57,592 nucleotides of DNA. Source: Patescibacteria group bacterium. Lineage in GTDB: Bacteria; Patescibacteriota; Doudnabacteria; UBA920. Below are positions 2,644-42,574 of the stretch, in pieces (the stretch's first letter is position 1; every line of letters starts with the position of its first letter). Both the position numbers and the translations under genes were made by a program. The notes under the pieces are model-generated. The model saw nothing but the letters and a program-made list of their open reading frames with translations, made no database searches and was not told where the DNA came from. Where the stretch lies: NCBI GenBank assembly GCA_038065175.1, contig JBBTRN010000002.1:1-57592 (forward strand). The letters are read 5' to 3'.

Positions 2644-4119
2644 ATGACTAAAGCGGAAGCCATAAGGAAACTCAAAGGGAAAATCTTGGCCAAACGGCCG
2701 ATTTTAGATGAGTTATTAAAGCGCCACGCCAATGTATCTGTAGCAGAATATAACAGAACATTGCTACCCTCTACATCGCCGATTGATGCTGTGCGCAAAC
2801 ACGATTTTATAAATATCTTTTCTGCGGAAATAGGAAAACATTTTAGTTCAGAAGTGGTGAATAGTGTTGTTAGGCAGCTGGAATCTTCGTATATGGTTTC
2901 AACCGCTGAGCATCATGGACCTTTAATGCACCCGTTTTTTGTCCATAGTAATTTGCTGGCCGCGCACAACGGCCAGGAAAATATTATAGTTTTAGGAGTC
3001 GGCAACGTTTCTTTAAATAATTCTTCCTATCCTCGCGGCTTAATTTTTCACTCCAAGGATGGAACAAAGCACCATTTGCCTTTTTTCCCATCTCCCGAGC
3101 GCATGTTTTCCGTATTCGGCCAGCGTGCTTTTGGCCAAAACGATATTCTTAAACTGCAAAATTTGATTCAAAATAAAGTCCGGAAAGGGGAATTGAGCAA
3201 TGCTTTGGCTAATTCGCTCAGAGAGTTCATTAATAATATTTGTAATCGCTCTGAAATTTTAAACCTGCCCGACTATAACCATCAAATTGTAAAGTTGAAT
3301 AGTTTATTGTGGCAGGACTTTCTTCCTCTGCCGCGAGCTAAACCTCCGCGGCTTTTGACATTACAATTGGAAGACATTGTTTTGCAGCTTTTGCAAAAAC
3401 ACCATTTGTTTTCTAATACGGATATTTACGAGTTAATCTTTAATACCAATATGCATCGCTTGCTTATTGAACATGCCGACGGGATTCCAGGCAATTTTTC
3501 TCTTGCTGATAAAAAGGGTACTTTTTTGTTTTGGTATTTGCCTTCTAAAAATAATCGCCGCCAGCAGATGTGGTTAAATGGCCGCTGGCTGCAATCAGCT
3601 GAAGGCTTTAAGCTCAAATTAGAGCCGTCGGCTTTAGAAAAAGCCATCGAGTTAGGGAAATTAATTCCCGGAACTTTTTTAAGCCTGCTTTTGCTTTCCG
3701 AATATTATGGCGTAAAGTGCCTCGGGGGATTTAGCCAGGGCACTTATTTAACCAAGACGCATGAAGTTTATAATATTATGCGCAAACGGCCTGCAAAGGC
3801 TTTTGACCAATCCCACTCTACCGGGCTAAGAAGCGATTTTGTTTTAGCTTATTTCAAAGACACCTTAGGACGCTTGCAGCCCGCAACAGGCATGGATTTA
3901 GCTCTGCATAGAAAAGCCGGATCATGGCAGGCTTTTTTAGAAACTGCTAATGAGCTTACTTTGGAACAAGCTATGGCACCTTTATTCCCCGAGTTATATC
4001 TGATTCTTTACTCTCCGAGCGAGCGTCAGGACGAGCTAACTAGTCTAACTATTTATGATATAATTGAGCATTATGGTTTTGCTGAGAAAATTAAGCCTAC
4101 AATTAGTATAGATGGATAA
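2644..4119 (+). CDS. Hypothetical protein (491 aa), no domain recognised
   Basis: Long uninterrupted ORF of host composition. An extended -10 (tgttataat, 2624-2632) lies just upstream. Its stop overlaps the next start by 8 nt. Confidence 0.55.
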   Translation: MTKAEAIRKLKGKILAKRPILDELLKRHANVSVAEYNRTLLPSTSPIDAVRKHDFINIFSAEIGKHFSSEVVNSVVRQLESSYMVSTAEHHGPLMHPFFVHSNLLAAHNGQENIIVLGVGNVSLNNSSYPRGLIFHSKDGTKHHLPFFPSPERMFSVFGQRAFGQNDILKLQNLIQNKVRKGELSNALANSLREFINNICNRSEILNLPDYNHQIVKLNSLLWQDFLPLPRAKPPRLLTLQLEDIVLQLLQKHHLFSNTDIYELIFNTNMHRLLIEHADGIPGNFSLADKKGTFLFWYLPSKNNRRQQMWLNGRWLQSAEGFKLKLEPSALEKAIELGKLIPGTFLSLLLLSEYYGVKCLGGFSQGTYLTKTHEVYNIMRKRPAKAFDQSHSTGLRSDFVLAYFKDTLGRLQPATGMDLALHRKAGSWQAFLETANELTLEQAMAPLFPELYLILYSPSERQDELTSLTIYDIIEHYGFAEKIKPTISIDG

Positions 4120-4953: not shown

Positions 4954-6192
4954 ATGACTAAAATTAACATTGTTATCCTCGGCGGGGGATTTTCCGGAGT
5001 TAGTTTGGCCATGGGTTTGGCCAGGCGCTTTAAGCGCGATTCGAATGTTGCAATAACGCTGGTAGATAGGGAAGCCTATCATTTGTTTAACAGTAATTTA
5101 TACGAAGTTGCCACGGCCGCAGAAGAACTAGAAAATACGGGCGATTTAAAAAACAGTATTGGCTTGCCATTTGCGGAAATTTTTAAGGGTAGGCGCGTTA
5201 GTTTTATCCAAAGCGAAGTTAAATCCATAGACCCTTTAACCCGCACTGTAAGTTTGGGCAATAAAAAGTTGGAGTATGATTATTTAATCGTTGCTCTTGG
5301 GTCAGAGGAGGAATATTTTAGCATACCGGGGGCAAAAGAATTCGGCATTCCGTTAAAAAGTCTGCCGCATGCGCTTAAAATAAAAAACGCAATTGAGTTC
5401 GCAGTCGAAGCCCATAAATTTGACGCGCAAAAAAAATATGTGCGAGTTTTAGTCGCCGGCGGCGGCTACACCGGAGTGGAGCTGGCAGGGGAATTGAAAG
5501 GTTTGTTGAATTTTTTGTCATGGAAATACAACTACCCCCGGGAAAAAATGGAAATTCAGATTTTAGAAGCATCGAATTCGCTAATGCCCGGGATGGGGGA
5601 TAGGGCGACTCGGGACGCCGCATCCCGTTTAAACTCTTTGGGGATCCGGGTAAAATTATTAAGCCCGATTATTAAAGTAGAACAGAATACGGTTGAAATT
5701 AATTATGGGGAAAAATTGGTTTATGACGTGCTGATTTGGACTGCGGGAGTAAGGGCTAAACCTTTACCCGCGGGGCTTAATTTACAAAAAGATGCTAAAG
5801 GCAAAGCCGTTGTTGACCAGTTTTTAAGGATCGCAGAGCACCATAATATTTTTGTGCTTGGCGACCAGGCAGCTGTTTTAAAACCAAATGGACAAGCGGC
5901 GCCGGCCAGCGCCCAGGATGCCGTGCGCGAGGCTGAATATTTAGCCAATGCCCTGCCGTGCTTAATTAAAAATCATCGTCCGCCGCCATATAGAACAAAA
6001 AACCACGGATTTATAGTTAGCGTGGGAGGGAAATGGGCTATTTTAAATTATCCACCGTTTTATTTTACCGGCCGCTTGGCCTATTTTATCCACGAACTCG
6101 CGCATGCGCGGTACTTTGCTTCCATCTTAGGTTGGTGGAAAGCTATTAAGCTGGTTTGGTTTCAGGATAGGCTATATAGCAGAAATGATTGA
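4954..6192 (+). CDS. ndh: Type II NADH dehydrogenase-like FAD/NAD(P)-dependent oxidoreductase
   Basis: Two Rossmann motifs (ILGGGFSGV, VAGGGYTGVELAGE) and VLGDQA. Length is 412 aa. Confidence 0.7.
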   Translation: MTKINIVILGGGFSGVSLAMGLARRFKRDSNVAITLVDREAYHLFNSNLYEVATAAEELENTGDLKNSIGLPFAEIFKGRRVSFIQSEVKSIDPLTRTVSLGNKKLEYDYLIVALGSEEEYFSIPGAKEFGIPLKSLPHALKIKNAIEFAVEAHKFDAQKKYVRVLVAGGGYTGVELAGELKGLLNFLSWKYNYPREKMEIQILEASNSLMPGMGDRATRDAASRLNSLGIRVKLLSPIIKVEQNTVEINYGEKLVYDVLIWTAGVRAKPLPAGLNLQKDAKGKAVVDQFLRIAEHHNIFVLGDQAAVLKPNGQAAPASAQDAVREAEYLANALPCLIKNHRPPPYRTKNHGFIVSVGGKWAILNYPPFYFTGRLAYFIHELAHARYFASILGWWKAIKLVWFQDRLYSRND

Positions 6193-6235: not shown

Positions 6236-6574
6236 ATGATTAACCACAAAATCCAAATAGCAAGAAAGCTTAGAAATAATCCGACTGATGCCGAAAAGAA
6301 ACTTTGGTATTTTTTAAGAAGCTACCGTATCCTGGGAATCAAATTTAGGAGACAACAGCCGATCGGAAGATATGTTGTAGATTTTGTCTGTCTGCCCAAA
6401 AAATTAATTATCGAATTGGACGGAAGCCAGCATCTAAACTCCAAATCCGATGAAGTACGGGATGATTGGCTAAACAAAGAAGGTTTTACAGTTTTAAGAT
6501 TCTGGAATAATGAAGTGTTGCAAAATATTGAAGGCGTGATGGAAAAAATTTTAAATTATTGTAATAAGCTATAA
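6236..6574 (+). CDS. DUF559 endonuclease-like protein (Vsr/restriction-endonuclease fold)
   Basis: KLRNNPTDAEKKLW, FRRQQPIGRYVVDFVC, IIELDGSQH and VLRFWNNEV are typical DUF559 blocks. The ATG at 6236 is preferred over the GTG at 6233. Confidence 0.8.
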   Translation: MINHKIQIARKLRNNPTDAEKKLWYFLRSYRILGIKFRRQQPIGRYVVDFVCLPKKLIIELDGSQHLNSKSDEVRDDWLNKEGFTVLRFWNNEVLQNIEGVMEKILNYCNKL

Positions 6575-6576
6575 AC

Positions 6577-6654
6577 TACCCCCACCTAACCTCCCCCCTC
6601 AAGCCACCCCATTTTCGCCAAGCGATAAATGGGGAACCCCGGCAGGGGGAGGAA
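6577..6654 (+). repeat. GGGAGG-hairpin repeat, direct copy abutting the DUF559 stop, interrupted by about 40 nt
   Basis: tacccccacctaacctcccccctcaag ... gggggaggaa. The loop is split by an inserted ccccattt/aaatgggg hairpin. Confidence 0.7.
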
Positions 6655-6790
6655 CCAGAAACACATTACTGTGCTAGCAGAATCCCCAGATTTGCTTGGG
6701 GATTTTTGATTTTACCCCGCTCTTTTGATGCAAAAAGGGCGGGGTTGACACCAACAGAGAGAGAGTATTATTGGCTTAAAGATAATCCTT

Positions 6791-6940
6791 GTCATCGCGA
6801 GTGCATCTCATTCGAGTCCGAGCGATTCCGTTCGTCCCTCAGAGTCGAGGACCGAAGCGATCTGAACCGTGGGGTAGATTGCTTCGTCGGATGTCGTGCC
6901 TGAGGCAGATCCGCCTCCGGCGGGCACTCCTCGCAATGAC
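6791..6940. repeat. Composite palindromic repeat: 72-nt unit A (6791-6862) plus inverted unit B (6877-6940) of the gtcat(t/c)gcgag...cgaagc(a/g)atc family
   Basis: Unit A reappears inverted at 9910-9981 with 2 mismatches in 72. Unit B is a gtcattgcgag...cgaagcaatc-type element on the opposite strand. Confidence 0.85.
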
Positions 6941-6970
6941 AGAAAATTAAATTTTGAAAGGAAAAAATAT

Positions 6971-7267
6971 ATGAGCGAAGGTAAGCAACAATTTGATGTT
7001 GATCCCAATATGCAATTAATAATTGATTCTCTTAAAGATTCAGGAAAATATAAAGAAATATATGCTGATCCAGAAATCCAAAAGTTGAAACAGGCATATG
7101 ACATTTTGGGGACATTGGCCGATAATGTATGGCGGAATCCTAATACTGTACCTACCCCAATTGCCTTATCCTTATTACACTCTAGAGACTACATCGGTCG
7201 GCAAATCGCTGATCTCTTGAAAGGTGAGGACGAGGATAGTACAACAGATGAACAAAAAACCGAGTAG
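6971..7267 (+). CDS. Hypothetical small acidic protein (98 aa)
   Basis: The ORF track gives 6896-7267, but the 5' part is repeat-encoded. The ATG at 6971 follows gaaaggaaaaaatat. The stop lies inside a terminator hairpin. Confidence 0.4.
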   Translation: MSEGKQQFDVDPNMQLIIDSLKDSGKYKEIYADPEIQKLKQAYDILGTLADNVWRNPNTVPTPIALSLLHSRDYIGRQIADLLKGEDEDSTTDEQKTE

Positions 7268-14671: not shown

Positions 14672-14884
14672 ATAGGATATGTTGAATAATTTCATAGGTA
14701 TTATACAACCCGTTGACGAATGTGGCAAATTGTGATATTTTTAGCTGTCTTTCGGTTTACCGCAAATGTGCGGAGTTTTATCTTCCTATTTTTCGTGTGA
14801 GGTGTAATTTAATCGGAGTGCCATACCCCGGTACCAGTCGTTTCTAGATAAATCGGGACTCCGGTACGGGGCAAGGAAATCCTC

Positions 14885-17793: not shown

Positions 17794-17957
17794 AGAACCT
17801 ATTTTAAAAATCCTTCTTGGCTGCAATTGCAGATTTTCGGCCATTCGGCCAAAAAAATTTATCCGCTTAACTTTCAGTTAAACATCAAAATTTATTTTGC
17901 CCGACTTGCTCGAAAATTTGCAATTTCGCCTAAAAATTATTTTTTAAAATAGGTTCT
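17794..17957. other. 164-nt long-hairpin element (perfect 17-nt terminal inverted repeats agaacctattttaaaaa) with a conserved apex motif
   Basis: The arms are imperfectly complementary over about 55 nt. The apex at 17851-17899 recurs at 30204-30252. Either a MITE or a structured RNA. Confidence 0.6.
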
Positions 17958-18254
17958 TAGGTATTATACTCAATTAAAGCTATTGCATCAATGAGGTTCG
18001 AATGATATGATTTAGCTCGTTAGGGGTTAAATTGAAATATTTTGGCGCAAAGTTTACATTACGGCGTTCTGTTCATTCACCCCGTTGAATATTCGGCCAC
18101 TTAGTTCAGTCTTGCCCCGCACGAATTTCCCTACATTTGGTTTATCTATAAATTTACAATTGCCGCAAAGACAATATTGATCAGTTTCATTAGTTAAGGA
18201 AATTGGTGCGGGGTGAAGTTAGAGCGCGCCGTTCATTCACCCCGTTGAATATTT

Positions 18255-18455
18255 GGACTCGTAGCTCAGTCTTGCCCCGTTAAATATTTATGGTCGCATA
18301 GCTCAGTTGGTTAGAGCGTTGCATTCACATTGCAAAGGCCCCTGGTTCGAGTCCAGGTGCGATCACCATAATTGCGACCATATTTAACGGGGTGAAGTTA
18401 GAGCGTTCGATTCACATTCAAAAGGTCAGAGGTTCAAATCCTCTCGAGTCCACCA
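18255..18455 (+). other. Split tRNA-like gene (Val-CAC-like) whose D-loop is interrupted by 126 nt that contain an intact tRNA-Val
   Basis: The 5' part GGACTCG TA GCTC AGT (18255-18270) and the 3' part GTTA GAGC G TTCGA TTCACAT TCAAA AGGTC AGAGG TTCAAAT CCTCT CGAGTCC A CCA (18397-18455) join into a cloverleaf with one C-A mismatch in the anticodon stem. Confidence 0.45.
18292..18368 (+). tRNA. tRNA-Val (anticodon CAC), CCA encoded
   Basis: Hand-folded: GGTCGCA/TGCGATC acceptor, GCTC/GAGC D stem, TTGCA-TTCACAT-TGCAA anticodon arm, CCTGG-TTCGAGT-CCAGG T arm, then ACCA. Confidence 0.85.
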
Positions 18456-18565
18456 AGTCTAACGGGGCAGGTAGTTGATGGCTCGTTTGGGTCTGCCTTA
18501 GGGCTTGACCGATTGGATATTATAGGTAAAATATATGCACAGTAATTATAAACTGGTTTTTAAAA

Positions 18566-19159
18566 ATGGAAACAGAGCCAAACCAAAACCAATCATCTAA
18601 ATTTTCAGCCGTGAAAGGTTTTTTTTGGGACTTAACAAAAATTTTGGCATGGTCTTTGTTGATTATTATCCCTTTCAGGCTTTTTATTGCCGAGCCGTTC
18701 GTTGTAAGTGGTTCTTCCATGGTGCCAAATTTCCACAATAAGGATTATTTAATTATAGACAGAATTTCCTACCGGAAGAGCGAGCCCGCAAGAGGGGATG
18801 TGGTGGTAATAAAATACCCAAAAGACAATAAGCAATATTTTATTAAAAGAATTATTGCTTTGCCCGGTGAAACCGTAGAGTTAAAAAATGGCGAAGTATT
18901 TATTGTAAATAAACAGGAGCCGCTAGGATTTGAAATAAATGAAAGTTATTTGTCAAAAAATATCCAGACTTTGGGCAGGGCCGGACCGGTAACCTTGGGA
19001 AGTGGCGAATATTATGTATTTGGCGATAACCGCACAGCTTCCTCAGATTCCCGAGTTTGGGGAATTTTGCCCAAAAAAAATATTGTCGGACGGGTTTGGC
19101 TCAGAGTTTTTCCGCTTGGGGATTTCGGCTTCATTAAAACGCCAACATATAGCAAGTAG
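18566..19159 (+). CDS. lepB: Signal peptidase I
   Basis: N-terminal TM helix, VSGSSMVPNF (catalytic Ser), FIKRIIALPGE (catalytic Lys box) and GDNRTASSDSR. Confidence 0.85.
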   Translation: METEPNQNQSSKFSAVKGFFWDLTKILAWSLLIIIPFRLFIAEPFVVSGSSMVPNFHNKDYLIIDRISYRKSEPARGDVVVIKYPKDNKQYFIKRIIALPGETVELKNGEVFIVNKQEPLGFEINESYLSKNIQTLGRAGPVTLGSGEYYVFGDNRTASSDSRVWGILPKKNIVGRVWLRVFPLGDFGFIKTPTYSK

Positions 19160-26168: not shown

Positions 26169-26289
26169 TTGTCCTCCTAGACATTTGGTAAAGAACTGTT
26201 GGTTAGAGAATTCTGCGTGTGGCGGTCTGCGCAAAATCCCCTTAAGCGAACTGCAAAAAAACTTGTGTAGCCACATTACTAATGTTTTT

Positions 26290-26326
26290 CACCCCCACCT
26301 AACCTCCCCCCTCAAGGGGGAGGAAA
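26290..26326 (+). repeat. GGGAGG-hairpin repeat (solo copy) in the 5' leader of the minus-strand operon
   Basis: cacccccacctaacctcccccctcaagggggaggaaa, located at the GC-rich/AT-rich boundary. Confidence 0.8.
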
Positions 26327-26394
26327 AAAACAGGAGATTAAAAACAACAGCAATGTAGCCGCAATTAATAAATAATATTTTATTTTAACCTCTG

Positions 26395-26424
26395 ATTATA
26401 ACACAAAATAGCTAAATTTGTCAA
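26395..26424 (-). promoter_or_regulatory. Consensus sigma70 promoter, minus strand (TTGACA-18-TGT-TATAAT)
   Basis: The reverse complement reads ttgaca aatttagctattttgtgt tataat with a TGn extended -10. It lies about 225 nt upstream of ATG 26168. Confidence 0.55.
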
Positions 26425-26504
26425 TAATTAGACCCTAAAACCCTTATTTATAAGGGAAAATTAATAATTTAGATTAAAAACAAGCCTGGATTAAGAGTTT
26501 ATTC

Positions 26505-26533
26505 TTGACATAATAGTTTATTTGTATTATAAT
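26505..26533 (+). promoter_or_regulatory. Consensus sigma70 promoter, plus strand (TTGACA-17-TATAAT)
   Basis: ttgaca at 26505-26510, a 17-nt spacer, tataat at 26528-26533. It lies about 335 nt upstream of ATG 26869. Confidence 0.55.
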
Positions 26534-26868
26534 GTTTAGTCATTATGCCGCAGTGTCGGCAGAGTGACACAGTTCTTTATAATTGTCCTTAAGGAGGATA
26601 TAAGCCCCAGTTAAATGAATCCAGACTTTGTTTGGGAATTTAACGGGGCAAGCGTTACTTATTTTACGCGGAGCATTCGCGGATTTAGATCGCAGACGCG
26701 GATTACGCGCTGAGCGGAAAAGAAATGTTAATTGCATGCTGAAAAAATTGGATACTGCAATTAGCCCCAAATTTATTTTTGGGATTAGTGGCAGTATCTA
26801 GTTTGATTTTTAGAACACGCCGCAAGGTGTGTCTCTATGGCAGTTAACGTTCAGGAAAAGGAAAGACA

Positions 26869-28497
26869 ATGTCTAACTACAAAAACCCCCTCGCACGTTT
26901 TTTTGGATTCGCGATTTGCGCGCTCGCGCTGATCGCGTCGTCCACAACCGCTTTTTCACAGACCCGCGATTACGACTTCGACAAGGACGGCAAGCCCGTT
27001 CAAGTCGGCGGCCCTGGGTTCACCCAGCAGCCGCAGGCGGCTCCGACCCCATTGCCGGCTCCCAAGCCGGACGAAGTGAAGCCGGGTTCGAGTTCCCCCA
27101 CCCCAAAGGCCGAGCCTGATAAGGGTGAAGCCAAAAAGGGAGGGGAGGAGAAAAAGTCCGAAGAGGCTACGACTCCATCTCCCGCGGCTCGCATCGGCGG
27201 CGCCATCCGTTCAGCCTTTCCGTGGATTTTGGGCGCTGTCGGTTTTATCGGTGTGGTAATCTTAGTGGTCGTGTTCCTGCGTTCGCGCAGGCAGGCGACT
27301 CCGCCCCCGCCGCGTCCGCACGCGCCTCCACCACCTCCCGCTCCCGGACCTCACGCTGCTCCGCGGCCCGTGGTTTCCCCGGCTCACCGTCCGCCTCCGG
27401 CCAGTGGGGTACCTGTTCGTCCGCCCGTTGCGGCGACTCCGCCCCCCTCTGGCCCAGCCGCACCCGCTCCGCCTGCAACGCCGGCTCCCGCGCCACCCGC
27501 AACACCTCCGGTCGTGGCTCCCATCGTCGCCCTGTTGTTCGCCGTGTTGTTCGCGGCGCAGGCGGCGTACTCGCAGGCGCAGTACACGGTGTTTCCGTCG
27601 GCCATCCCGGTCGGCGGCAGCATCAACGCCATCGTCACCGGGCCGAACGCCAACACCCTCACGGGTTGCGGCGTTGCCCTTCCGGACAGTGGCTGCTCGT
27701 TCTCACACGTGGTCTCCGCCACCCAGGTAATGGTTCGGCTCACTGCCGGACCCAACGCCATGGGCACGAACCCGCACCCGGTGCGCGGCACCCTTCGGTT
27801 GGTTTTCGGTGGCACAACCACCGTGAATTTGCCGAACGCAGTTGTGGTGGGCAAGTCGGAGCAAATTGGCACGGCGATGATCTCGCCACATGTCAATCCG
27901 GCACCTGCGCCAGCACCCCGTCCGACCTACATCGCCGGCGCTGACCGGACCGCACGCACTGCGGCCGAAGCGGCTATGAACGCCGCGAAAAACGCGCAGT
28001 CCGCGAATCGGTCGTTGGCTGATAAGCTGGAAGCAACAATGACGTTGCTCCAGAACGTGGACTCGCGACTGCAGGCTTTGGAAGGTCGTCCGCAGGTTGT
28101 GGGCGGGCTCCAGGACTCGCAAGTCCGGACTATCGTCAACGAAAGCGTTGATGGTCGGGTTGCCCTTTCACTCGCCCCGGTCCGCAAGGACCTGGACGAG
28201 CTGAAGGCTCGTGTGGACAAGGTTGAGCCGATTTTGACCGCGACGGCTGATGCTGTTGAAGCGGTCGGTGCGGCGGCGGATCATGGTGGCAGTTTTCTCG
28301 GTTTCGGCGGCGGACCTAAAAAATCCCTCCGTCAGGCCGCGACTGAAGCCAGGCTCCGCCTGGCGTGTGCCCGCGGAATCGTGACCAAGGGTTGCCCGGC
28401 TTCGCTGGGTACACCCGCGGCCACGGCCGCATCGGCACCGGTGGCCGCAAGCTCCGGAACCGCCCGCCTCTCGGGCGGCCGTGTTGACAAGAAGTAA
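26869..28497 (+). CDS. Proline-rich envelope protein with signal peptide, two further TM helices, an Ig-like region and a coiled coil (542 aa)
   Basis: Signal-like N-terminus FAICALALIASSTTAFSQ, TM helix WILGAVGFIGVVILVVVFL, a Pro-rich block of about 70 aa (PPPPRPHAPPPPPAPGP...), and a second signal-like helix IVALLFAVLFAAQAAYSQ. The C-terminal part has heptad-like helices. High GC. Confidence 0.55.
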   Translation: MSNYKNPLARFFGFAICALALIASSTTAFSQTRDYDFDKDGKPVQVGGPGFTQQPQAAPTPLPAPKPDEVKPGSSSPTPKAEPDKGEAKKGGEEKKSEEATTPSPAARIGGAIRSAFPWILGAVGFIGVVILVVVFLRSRRQATPPPPRPHAPPPPPAPGPHAAPRPVVSPAHRPPPASGVPVRPPVAATPPPSGPAAPAPPATPAPAPPATPPVVAPIVALLFAVLFAAQAAYSQAQYTVFPSAIPVGGSINAIVTGPNANTLTGCGVALPDSGCSFSHVVSATQVMVRLTAGPNAMGTNPHPVRGTLRLVFGGTTTVNLPNAVVVGKSEQIGTAMISPHVNPAPAPAPRPTYIAGADRTARTAAEAAMNAAKNAQSANRSLADKLEATMTLLQNVDSRLQALEGRPQVVGGLQDSQVRTIVNESVDGRVALSLAPVRKDLDELKARVDKVEPILTATADAVEAVGAAADHGGSFLGFGGGPKKSLRQAATEARLRLACARGIVTKGCPASLGTPAATAASAPVAASSGTARLSGGRVDKK

Positions 28498-28507
28498 CGC
28501 TTTTCCT

Positions 28508-28546
28508 TACCCCCTCCCTAACCCTCCCCCTTAACAGGGGAGGGAA
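28508..28546 (+). repeat. GGGAGG-hairpin repeat (solo, diverged copy) right after the 542-aa gene
   Basis: taccccctccctaaccctcccccttaacaggggagggaa. Confidence 0.7.
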
Positions 28547-29027
28547 TAGCAGGCGGTGACGGAACATAAACATTGGAAGAGGGGAATGGCACTGCTATTT
28601 CCCTCTCTCCTCTCTAAAAAATTAGGATTTGGAATTTAGGGTAAAAGGTATATACTTTATATCCTGAAACTAGAATCTTAAAAATACCTCCGGTTAAATG
28701 ATTTGCTTGGCAAATCAACCCGCCTTTGGCGGATTATTTAACGGGGTAAACAAGGAGGAATATAAACCAATTCCAGTTTTTGGAATTGGGAAATTTTAGA
28801 TTTGGCAGATTAGCTTCTCGACAGGCTCGAAGGTTATGCACGGATGAGCAAGTAAAGACATCTTAGAGATAAAAATAGATCCCGGATCCCCAGTAGTAGT
28901 TCTCGACAAGCTCGAACACTACGGGGCAAGCAAGTCCGGGATGACAGAAAGGTGTTTTTTCTTGCTCGTCCGGCATCCCTGAAGTTTAGGGAAATTCAAC
29001 CGGACGGCGAGAAAGGAGGGTAGCGAG

Positions 29028-29981
29028 ATGCCTTTGATCTTTGCAATTCTCCTGTTTTTGTCCGCCGGTTTGGGGGTCGCACAGACTTCCACCGGCAAAG
29101 TGTTTTTTGCAACGCCCGAGGCTTGCCTCGCGGCTCCGCTAGACAACTCCTCGATCGTTTATCAACCGAGCTTTAACAATTTGCTTGGGTGGTGGACGGA
29201 AAAGTGGGAGCTTGGAACTGCGCAAAAAGTCGAGGGTCATAACAAGACCTTCTGTGCAGAGGAGCAGACTGTGGAGGGCAAGCAAATTATCCGTTGGCCC
29301 AAAAACAATCCGTTCTTTACAGCCGGAAGCCGCAAGGCTGACGGCCGGTGCGGCAATGAGGTTTATAGGCTTTGGGAAGTTTCCGAGCCTGTGTTTCAAC
29401 CAGTAGTAGTAGTACCGCCCGTTGCAGTCGCTCCGGCTTCGCCCGCACCACCTTCGCATGTCTGTCCGGAGTGCGGCGATGTTACTTGGGCTGTGAACCA
29501 GCCTGGGGTGATATCGAAAGTCGAGAACGGAACACTTGTTCTCGGCTCGGTGGTTCTCCACAGCGACTTGCGCCTTAATTTGACGTTCTCGTTTACCGAG
29601 GGCGTAGAGGAAGGCCGCATTTTGGCAGGGGACACGGTTCTGGCCGGCGGAAATGCCGTGGACATTACTTCTGCGGATGGTCCGGAACCGGGGGTGTACG
29701 ATATTGTTGCGGAAGGCCGGGACTCGGACGGTCACATTGTCCGTTGCCGGGTTCGTATCACGTTTGTGGCTCCTGCGCTACCCGCTCCTGTCCTTATTAC
29801 CGTCGAAAAAAAGAAGGGGAGGAAATTCCCAATCCCGTGTATCCCACGGGAGAAAACGTGGTTCGGCATCGGCGTCCCCGTTCTTGAGTGTGCGGCCATC
29901 GTTGGCGGCGTATGGGCAATCTGGCCTGTCGCCGAAGCCTTCAAGCACGGCGCTGCTGTGCTGGTCGGACTTGTGCTCTAA
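29028..29981 (+). CDS. Secreted, C-terminally anchored protein with Ig-like region (317 aa)
   Basis: AGGAGG lies 8 nt upstream. Signal peptide IFAILLFLSAGLGVAQ, a Cys-containing N-domain, a Pro/Val linker, a beta-rich segment (GVYDIVAEGRDSDGHIVRCRVRITF) and a hydrophobic C-terminus. High GC. Confidence 0.55.
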   Translation: MPLIFAILLFLSAGLGVAQTSTGKVFFATPEACLAAPLDNSSIVYQPSFNNLLGWWTEKWELGTAQKVEGHNKTFCAEEQTVEGKQIIRWPKNNPFFTAGSRKADGRCGNEVYRLWEVSEPVFQPVVVVPPVAVAPASPAPPSHVCPECGDVTWAVNQPGVISKVENGTLVLGSVVLHSDLRLNLTFSFTEGVEEGRILAGDTVLAGGNAVDITSADGPEPGVYDIVAEGRDSDGHIVRCRVRITFVAPALPAPVLITVEKKKGRKFPIPCIPREKTWFGIGVPVLECAAIVGGVWAIWPVAEAFKHGAAVLVGLVL

Positions 29982-42399: not shown

Positions 42400-42574
42400 A
42401 ATAAAAATTTGGATTTACCCCGTTAGAAGCAGAATGCCCCGCGGCTTGCCGCGGGGATGGATGCTCTTTTGTTGTTTTAGCGAACACGGGGTTTAATGCC
42501 CCGCGTGAGCTTCTAACGGGGTTTGCCTTTAAGGTAAATCCTAAAGCAAGATTGTGCAGCTCTTGCCCATTAAA

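Follow-up and report, generated by a model that had tools for sequence, protein, structure and literature searches.

In reduced genomes, transfer RNA (tRNA) genes are single-copy and essential, and their evolution is hence assumed to be slow and vertical. Several systems are known in which tRNA genes are interrupted, split or used as targets. Introns excised by the archaeal route lie at a bulge-helix-bulge (BHB) motif, i.e., two 3-nucleotide (nt) bulges on opposite strands with a 4-base-pair (bp) helix between them, while group I introns insert in the anticodon loop and have a catalytic core that is found by covariance model. In split tRNAs of the Nanoarchaeum type, separate half-genes are paired by complementary flanks and joined into the only tRNA for the anticodon. 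There are also integrative elements that use tRNA genes as targets; they bring along part of a tRNA, and the fragment that they displace ends up at the far junction. Phage T4 SegB is a free-standing GIY-YIG homing endonuclease encoded in a tRNA cluster, and GIY-YIG open reading frames (ORFs) of fungal mitochondria insert together with a duplicated gene end. Small mobile palindromes include repetitive extragenic palindromic (REP) elements, bacterial miniature inverted-repeat transposable elements (MITEs), the GC clusters of yeast mitochondria and the double-hairpin elements of Allomyces. Among the archaeal cases described in PMC3293823 are tRNA genes interrupted at non-canonical positions, including the D-arm, with fragments that adjoin a complete gene and a mobile element as the proposed cause; the disruption types treated there and in PMC10714607, which summarises Fujishima et al., include multiple and ectopic BHB introns, split and tri-split tRNAs, intron transposition and the Caldiarchaeum tRNA-Thr locus. 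The present analysis concerns a bacterial locus in which an intact tRNA-Val(CAC) gene lies inside the remains of others. It is located in a stretch of 57,592 nt (57.6 kb, “the window”) from a Patescibacteria group bacterium (assembly GCA_038065175.1, contig JBBTRN010000002.1, positions 1 to 57,592 of the forward strand). Judged from nucleotide sequences, this locus is probably a stack of successive generations of tRNA-Val(CAC), of which only the innermost copy works.

ARAGORN and Rfam each find two tRNAs in the window, one being the tRNA-Val(CAC) at 18292-18368, and Rfam searches of the whole window, together with permissive scans of 17900-18600, 26270-26880 and 28480-29040, returned only these two and otherwise chance-level matches. 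The inner tRNA is canonical and shares 91% identity with a tRNA that stands alone in L035, a locus of a Moranbacteria-type assembly. It stands at the tip of a 13-bp inverted repeat (18275-18287 and 18380-18392) with 100% complementarity, and the trailer at 18373-18382 (TGCGACCATA) is complementary to 18289-18298, and so can pair with the 5' acceptor strand of the inner tRNA. All of this lies within the D-loop of a second tRNA-Val(CAC) gene, here called the middle gene. If the insert at 18271-18396 is removed, the joined flanks (18255-18270 and 18397-18455) form a full cloverleaf with 7/7 pairs in the acceptor stem (GGACTCG/CGAGTCC), in which an A at position 41 breaks one pair of the anticodon stem, leaving a C-A mismatch. 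The 3' part of this gene is recognised by the tRNA model even on its own (24.6 bits, E = 0.011). The middle gene is bracketed in turn, with 18236-18254 able to pair with 18456-18471 and also with 18380-18396; the same layout, TTCAC/CCCG...CGGGG/CAAG, is found in L039, L030 and L018.

Around the middle gene lie the remains of a third. A 5' fragment is interrupted in its D-loop by a 107-nt hairpin and then resumes with GTTAGAGCG; in the relative L187, the sequence found at 18218-18235 runs uninterrupted into the rest of a tRNA (GTTAGAGCGCGCCGTTCACATCGGCG...). Since this piece ends in the anticodon loop and is followed by the bracketed middle gene, the anticodon loop of the outermost gene houses the middle gene, whose D-loop houses the live one, giving at least three nested levels. 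The 3' half of the outermost gene was not found: joining 18095-18110 and 18218-18239 to the sequence beyond 18468 gives no tRNA, and the acceptor strand of the outermost fragment does not pair with the 3' end of the middle gene. The leader CCCCGTT(G/A)AATATT (repeat family D4) stands before all three tRNA starts. A direct repeat, D1, relates 18059-18119 to 18219-18279 at 84% identity, and its first part, 18059-18079, is possibly the trace of a fourth and oldest layer. An earlier note on this DNA had described an intact inner tRNA, a 13-bp inverted repeat around it, a trailer able to pair with its acceptor strand, a second cloverleaf with a single C-A mismatch, a further 5' fragment with a hairpin in its D-loop, and a leader common to the three tRNA starts. 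Each of these pieces was recovered. What the note under-read was the depth of the locus, to which are to be added the resumption of the outer fragment as far as the 5' anticodon stem and the CCCCG...CGGGG leader and trailer around the middle gene.

The two D-loop inserts, of 107 and 126 nt, end alike, with CTTGCCCCG...CGGGGTGAA. These 9-mers are in excess in the window (CTTGCCCCG, 5 copies against 0.66 expected; CGGGGTGAA, 4 against 0.42), and neither count was reached in shuffled sequences. The left end CTTGCCCCG is also carried, on the minus strand, by intergenic hairpins at 14827-14877, 26605-26652 and 28890-28933. The earlier note had proposed a wider family of hairpins built on ccccgttaaat. 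The similarity of the stem feet is real (26605-26652, 28692-28749 and 42418-42523), while the 11-mer that was quoted is statistically weak, with 8 copies against 3.9 expected. The hairpins at 28692-28749 and 42418-42523 are variants, the latter enclosing a second hairpin, CCCCGCGGCTTGCCGCGGGG, and the orientation of the intergenic hairpins relative to neighbouring genes varies.

Additional evidence came from a scan of one genome per species with a 17-mer that spans the 3' junction of the insert, CGGGGTGAAGTTAGAGC. The 17-mer matched 40 genome loci (loci are cited by L numbers), 27 of which are tRNA loci of the candidate phyla radiation (CPR) with the same junction and the same architecture; they include Moran-, Doudna-, Buchanan-, Uhr-, Levyi- and Saccharibacteria as well as Paceibacterota. 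Hence the locus is not a one-off and belongs to a widespread class. The set compared in detail comprised 30 sources (these CPR tRNA loci, the window, L041 and L187) with 29 recognisable inserts. Fourteen inserts enclose an intact tRNA, and its anticodon is always that of the gene it splits (Val-CAC, Val-TAC or Met-CAT); by inspection, L020 (Ile-GAT) and L011 (Val-GAC) follow the same pattern. The remaining inserts are plain hairpins of 28-140 nt. Those of ~107 nt in L001, L006 and L013 are homologous to 18111-18217, occupy the same D-loop position and show compensatory changes in their stems. The element also occurs inverted in anticodon loops, as TTCACCCCG...CGGGGCAAG (L018, L030, L039 and L001). 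The junction motif is conserved over CPR phyla, and L041 carries a compensatory CCCCC/GGGGG variant of it. A phage origin was considered: a search of IMG/VR with the junction 17-mer gave four matches, all in coding sequence and without a nearby tRNA. A census of 5' junctions with GCTCAGNCTTGCCCCG was abandoned, as this pattern has too few specified bases and, among the matches listed, most were chance hits in unrelated phyla.

Brackets are confined to nested tRNAs. Leader-trailer stems of at least 10 bp with a CCCCG foot surround 17 nested tRNAs; the ~50 other tRNAs of these loci have no such stem, which rules them out as a general feature of CPR tRNA genes. The arms differ between loci and consist of 392 Watson-Crick, 11 G-T, 4 A-C and 18 other pairs; what is conserved at the insert ends is ~5 bp of inverted repeat (CCCCG/CGGGG) and asymmetric 4-nt ends. 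The predicted RNA fold of the region in the window is a nested set of helices (-138.6 kcal/mol, z = -6.2). A separate observation concerns L030 (minus strand, ~2782-3075) and L032 (2860-3070), which share the same arms and 5' shell and have inner tRNA-Val(CAC) genes that differ by six fully compensated stem pairs. This suggests that alleles can be swapped by conversion inside a stable frame, with no new layer of nesting.

Several lines of evidence indicate that the interrupted genes are dead. Removal of the insert gives a clean cloverleaf in only three of 29 interrupted genes (the middle gene of the window, L024 and L028), so that the middle gene is among the few that can still fold; the other 26 are truncated, hold additional inserts or show mismatches in the acceptor stem. 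L012 apart, each interrupted gene contains or adjoins an intact one that shares its anticodon. L012, a Buchananbacteria tRNA-Val locus (minus strand, ~6480-7230), has many hairpin inserts and no intact tRNA by ARAGORN, and is made unreadable by a run of N in the record; it may be an exception, with no live copy close by. L025 and L029 are 100% identical in the inner tRNA and in the arms of the bracket, while the flanking remains of the older gene (its “shells”) have diverged, with several indels and a 34-nt hairpin insertion that L029 has and L025 lacks. Inserts present in L030 are similarly absent in L032.

Comparison with the syntenic LCP-lepB locus of relatives also reveals the order of the layers. 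L053 has a plain tRNA-Val(CAC). In L186, where LepB is 75% identical, the tRNA is uninterrupted and 89% identical to the middle shell of the window, of which it is the closest intact homologue; position 41 is a G and the anticodon stem is intact, whereas the window has an A. The tRNA type that is alive in the window (GGTCGCA/GGTCGTA) is itself a shell in L041 and L187, where it encloses a newer Val(CAC) gene with a GGACGGT or GGGCGGT acceptor strand. In L041, this shell has lost nt ~17-58 and the bracket is nevertheless kept. From the states of the layers in the window, L186, L041 and L187, the order reads as GGCCACT, then GGACTCG, then GGTCGCA (alive in the window) and finally GGRCGGT (alive in relatives). 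The shells thus show relaxed constraint when set against the live copy, and an intact homologue occurs in relatives (the G41-to-A change, L025/L029 and L041/L187). These data make it likely that the outer genes were replaced one after another and remain as superseded shells. The earlier note had listed, as the first of three options, a repeat element carrying a replacement tRNA that inserted into an older tRNA-Val and killed it, and had called for a comparison of the locus in relatives; the window/L186/L041/L187 series, with shells that are decayed or gutted and layers in differing states, supports that option.

The proposed mechanism is as follows. Each newer copy would have arrived as a short cassette, a tRNA within a perfect inverted repeat with the foot CTTG-CCCCG...CGGGG-TGAA, and would have inserted into the previous copy, either in the D-loop between nt 16 and 19 or in the anticodon loop, cutting the older gene into two shells, 5' and 3'. 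Because the cassette brought the same essential tRNA, the disruption would be tolerated. With one copy per tRNA, only inserts that bring a working replacement would survive, which accounts for the anticodon always being shared by inner and outer genes. The shells would then decay through point mutations, deletions and further insertions of small GC-rich hairpins. Two features argue for replacement by insertion. The acceptor stems of the layers differ from one another and are each self-complementary (GGACTCG/CGAGTCC vs GGTCGCA/TGCGATC), so the layers are distinct alleles and not decayed duplicates, and nesting with shells on both sides requires the insertion of a segment with a whole tRNA into a resident gene. 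A promoter near 18032-18060 probably drives the whole stack as a single precursor transcript; there a consensus scan, which is no proof of function, found the only promoter-like site of the stack, at its upstream edge. The bracket helices would then fold, ordinary 5' and 3' tRNA processing would free the inner tRNA alone, and the shells would be discarded as leader and trailer. Confidence in any particular mechanism of mobility is much lower than confidence in the reading of the outer genes as shells.

Table 1. Features of the nested tRNA-Val(CAC) locus, in order along the window.
Feature	Position	Strand	Basis
Promoter-like site: TTGAAA, 17-nt spacer, TACATT	18032-18060	+	consensus scan
Decayed copy of GTTAGAGCGCGCCGTTCATTCA (D-arm 3' strand and 5' anticodon stem)	18059-18079	+	direct repeat D1
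First leader copy, TTCACCCCGTTGAATATTC	18076-18094	+	repeat families D3, D4; inverted repeat I3
Outermost shell, tRNA nt 1-16, GGCCACTTAGTTCAGT	18095-18110	+	repeat analysis
107-nt hairpin in outermost D-loop, CTTGCCCCG...CGGGGTGAA, without tRNA	18111-18217	+	inverted repeat I2
Outermost shell continued: D-arm 3' strand and 5' anticodon stem, stops inside anticodon loop, GTTAGAGCGCGCCGTTCA	18218-18235	+	
Left bracket arm around middle gene, TTCA-CCCCGTTGAATATTT	18236-18254	+	inverted repeat I4; RNA fold
Middle shell, tRNA-Val(CAC) nt 1-16, GGACTCGTAGCTCAGT	18255-18270	+	spliced cloverleaf
D-loop insert, left end: CTTG, arm CCCCGTTAAATAT, spacer TTAT	18271-18291	+	repeat analysis
Live tRNA-Val(CAC), CCA encoded	18292-18368	+	ARAGORN; Rfam 69.9 bits
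D-loop insert, right end: spacer with extra 3' acceptor-strand copy TGCGACCA, arm ATATTTAACGGGG, TGAA	18369-18396	+	inverted repeats I5, I7
Middle shell, tRNA-Val(CAC) nt 19 to CCA	18397-18455	+	Rfam tRNA model; spliced cloverleaf
Right bracket arm around middle gene, AGTCTAACGGGG-CAGG	18456-18471	+	repeat D6; inverted repeat I6; fold

The other two options of the earlier note would have the middle gene alive. If the D-loop insert were removed from the transcript as an intervening sequence, the outer tRNA-Val would count as a further working gene, one whose “intron” encodes another tRNA by chance, and this model can point to the cloverleaf with a perfect acceptor stem that the middle gene forms without its insert, to the conservation of the junction motif over CPR phyla, including the compensatory variant in L041, and to the preponderance of G-T over A-C pairs in the stems (11 vs 4), a weak hint of selection on the sense strand. 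Checked by hand, the junctions (18264-18287 and 18380-18404) cannot form a BHB motif: beyond the CCCCG/CGGGG helix, neither CUUG with AGUU (leaving a UGA bulge) nor AGUC with UGAA (leaving a UUG bulge) pairs, and the fold is a continuous imperfect rod. No group I or group II intron or other intron family matched 17900-18600 at the gathering score or at E values up to 10, and the inserts measure 107 and 126 nt here and go down to 28 nt elsewhere. Excision at the conserved ends would leave a D-loop of 7 nt that lacks G18 and G19, and 26 of the 29 interrupted genes would still be broken afterwards. Moreover, the same hairpin occurs inverted in anticodon loops and in intergenic DNA, and the stem-breaking G41-to-A change distinguishes the middle shell from its intact homologue in L186. 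Excision is therefore very unlikely. All of this evidence applies equally to the proposal that the middle gene is a split tRNA, with the inner tRNA cut out by RNase P and 3' processing, and with the outer halves, held together by the 13-bp bracket, the acceptor stem and the D-stem, serving in two pieces or ligated. The predicted fold does give this nested pairing (z = -6.2), and the leader at 18236-18252 is complementary to 18380-18396 (I4), a pairing that resembles the complementary flanks of Nanoarchaeum half-genes. The halves are 126 nt apart on one strand with an intact gene of the same anticodon between them; as the outer gene reads the same codon as the inner one, nothing would select for it. 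In L041, the bracket is kept around an outer gene without nt ~17-58, so the bracket is not there for reuniting halves. Most interrupted genes cannot be rebuilt, and the intact same-anticodon gene is present in all but the one unreadable locus, which makes split halves an extremely remote explanation. At this locus, both the intron and the split-tRNA interpretations are unlikely.

Two further explanations were weighed. One dispenses with a mobile element and invokes local rearrangement at a fragile palindromic locus able to form cloverleaves, by replication template switching, partial duplication and gene conversion with DNA acquired from relatives. The ~160-nt tandem-like periodicity (18059-18119 vs 18219-18279), TTCA microhomology at the unit junctions, a window without a mobility gene, and the L030/L032 pair, which looks like conversion in a stable frame, are all consistent with this. 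Tandem duplication would not place shells on both sides of a gene, which takes an insertion; identical 9-nt ends mark one and the same site in the D-loop across many isotypes and phyla; the layers are distinct alleles by their own complementary acceptor stems; and the presence of hairpins varies between close relatives. Local rearrangement as the whole explanation is thus unlikely, with some real chance of being right. Alternatively, shells and brackets may be kept since they serve the inner gene, as a promoter, a double-stranded processing stem or protection of the precursor, an idea that overlaps with serial replacement. In its favour, the arms remain perfectly paired while the shells decay, arm changes between loci are compensatory, and the promoter-like site stands only at the upstream edge of the stack. 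Against this, the ~50 ordinary tRNA genes of the same genomes do without a bracket, as do the homologous tRNAs of L053 and L186, and shell sequences vary freely. A service to the inner gene is accordingly given only a slim chance as the reason for the arrangement.

While serial replacement by cassettes accounts for the nesting, a number of features weigh against it. The stack and its vicinity contain no gene for a nuclease, transposase or integrase, and a search of the 57.6-kb window with a GIY-YIG profile gave no match. The inserts (at most 126 nt) contain no ORF, and the presence of both 5' and 3' shells differs from the att duplication of integrase-type insertion. The insert ends are not clean inverted repeats, their outer 4 nt being asymmetric, and the D-loop junctions show no target-site duplication; the TG of the D-loop is missing instead of duplicated. 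No known transposition chemistry fits these ends. By hand, the junction was also considered as attC-like (integron), IS200/IS605-like or hammerhead-like, and each of these was rejected, since the arm positions or core motifs do not fit. The arms are almost purely Watson-Crick yet locus-specific, which is not predicted by a simple MITE family, and their pairing could reflect selection on a functional RNA or DNA structure. The insert is inverted between D-loop and anticodon loop while the direction of the tRNA is constant, so a cassette with a fixed cargo is too simple a description. The inner tRNAs of L030 and L032 differ by six compensated pairs within the same arms and shell. Finally, the census was seeded with GTTAGAGC and is therefore skewed toward tRNAs that bear that D-arm. 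These unfitting features keep a purely recombinational origin and a structural role of the bracket alive as rivals.

The nearest lead to a cassette mover comes from GIY-YIG genes, which are candidates for this role. ORFs of ~80 amino acids that match PF01541 lie beside nested tRNAs in L018, L029, L033 and L058, in each case between the 5' shell and the live copy of the same tRNA. With a profile built from these four CPR proteins, another 80 loci were found in CPR, Bacteroidota and other groups. A co-oriented tRNA begins at the end of the ORF in 27 of them, and 21 of these 27 have a 5' shell upstream; the stop codon of the ORF is often T8-A9-G10 of the tRNA that follows. By inspection, every shell sequence listed for the GIY-YIG loci has a GC-rich palindrome in its D-arm, and that of L033 is of the CTTGCCCCG...TGAA type. 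In the first unit of the window, the shell bears a hairpin in its D-loop and breaks off in the anticodon loop, after which a short spacer leads to the next tRNA; this is the architecture of a GIY-YIG locus minus the ORF. Since the window has no GIY-YIG gene, the stack would be either a fossil or mobilised in trans. The ~80-residue proteins consist of the catalytic domain without a recognisable DNA-binding domain. It is tentatively proposed, with more doubt than confidence, that hairpin-bracketed tRNA cassettes and “hairpin-shell / GIY-YIG / tRNA” units are undescribed selfish elements specific to tRNA genes, which would destroy a resident essential single-copy tRNA gene and deliver their own copy, so that the host cannot lose them. 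If so, repeated invasions would build Russian-doll stacks and reshuffle tRNA alleles across CPR and Bacteroidota.

Individual GIY-YIG loci show further detail. In Bacteroidota and other non-CPR loci (L228-L282, e.g., L243, L262 and L275), a tRNA 5' copy (Arg, Met, Phe, Gln, Lys or Gly) carries CCTGCCTGCCGGCAGGCAGG between A21 and G22 and lies ~60-120 nt upstream of the GIY-YIG ORF; the order is a 5' copy that stops in the anticodon loop, the ~80-residue ORF and the live tRNA. The tRNA-Asp nest of L029 (minus strand, ~5558-6030) consists of a 5' shell with a CCCGCCCGAACG... hairpin at position 9/10, the GIY-YIG ORF, the live tRNA-Asp, a spacer and a 3' shell that begins in the T-loop (AGTCCCGCCGTCCCCGCA), the same position at which the 3' shell of L041 begins. 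L058 (same record as L205) has, at ~2640-2790, a dead tRNA-Val(CAC) copy downstream of the GIY-YIG gene and the live tRNA-Val(CAC). Two TCCCCCC...GGGGGGA hairpins lie in the dead copy, and the direct repeats at their flanks, TAGA and TCA, have the look of target-site duplications of a small hairpin element from a different family.

The genes that neighbour the stack in the window (Pth, Der, an LCP-family protein, LepB and a HisRS-like protein) are a typical CPR/Patescibacteria set, and the closest LepB relatives, 59-75% identical, come from a metagenome contig and from assemblies labelled Doudnabacteria or Saccharibacteria. A second promoter-like site (18505-18532; TTGACC, 16-nt spacer, TAAAAT) precedes lepB, directly next to where the tRNA stack ends, and is conserved in L186. 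Upstream of the tRNA-Lys at 1876-1951, GCAGTCTTGCCGTGCGAGG (~1843-1861) resembles the junction TCAGTCTTGCCCCGCACGA and may be the decayed remnant of an older shell around that gene.

If this interpretation is right, the stacks would show the opposite of slow vertical evolution: a tRNA gene overwritten repeatedly by alleles with other stems, leaving a readable record of its predecessors. They also matter for annotation, as tRNA finders detect the inner gene only and the shells can be mistaken for introns, split genes or pseudogene noise. Should the cassettes be mobile, they would amount to a compact “kill and replace” drive on non-coding RNA genes, and the GIY-YIG lead offers a testable role for a very common, uncharacterised family of ~80-residue proteins. 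The loci would further provide a bacterial counterpart to the archaeal debate over the origin of disrupted tRNA genes.

There are clear parallels with the disrupted tRNA genes of archaea, which likewise have non-canonical interruption sites, fragments near a complete gene and a mobile element as the suggested cause. One important difference is that the archaeal genes are functional and are spliced at a BHB motif by the splicing endonuclease; the stack has a bacterial host, no such motif, interrupted genes that are mostly beyond repair, and a whole replacement tRNA inside. Integrative elements resemble the stack in using a tRNA gene as target, in saving its function through the incoming tRNA sequence and in accumulating displaced fragments. 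They extend over kilobases and encode a tyrosine integrase, and as a rule it is the 3' part that is duplicated, with the fragment left kilobases away, whereas the inserts described here measure 28-140 nt, lack an integrase, enter the D-loop or anticodon loop, and leave 5' and 3' shells tight around the new gene. In the T4 and mitochondrial GIY-YIG cases, as in the CPR and Bacteroidota loci, a small GIY-YIG gene is linked to the replacement or duplication of part of an essential gene; those cases are not known to have a counterpart of the hairpin in the shell D-arm, and the window has no GIY-YIG gene. Small mobile palindromes share with the present family short GC-rich hairpins with a conserved end, intergenic scatter, presence that differs between relatives and, sometimes, short direct repeats (L058). 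As expected of MITE-type elements, differences in presence (L025/L029 and L030/L032) and dispersed copies (five CTTGCCCCG ends in the window) are both observed. Unlike such palindromes, the family strongly favours one position in tRNA genes, conserves only ~9 nt per end, has arms that vary from copy to copy and still pair perfectly, and includes some copies that enclose a complete tRNA gene. No published description of nested tRNA stacks was found in the literature searched, coverage of which was incomplete. In no system compared here is a bacterial host combined with whole tRNAs that nest tightly in a D-loop or anticodon loop and with a hairpin bracket that is conserved, and the stack is best classed with the disruption and replacement of tRNA genes linked to mobile elements.

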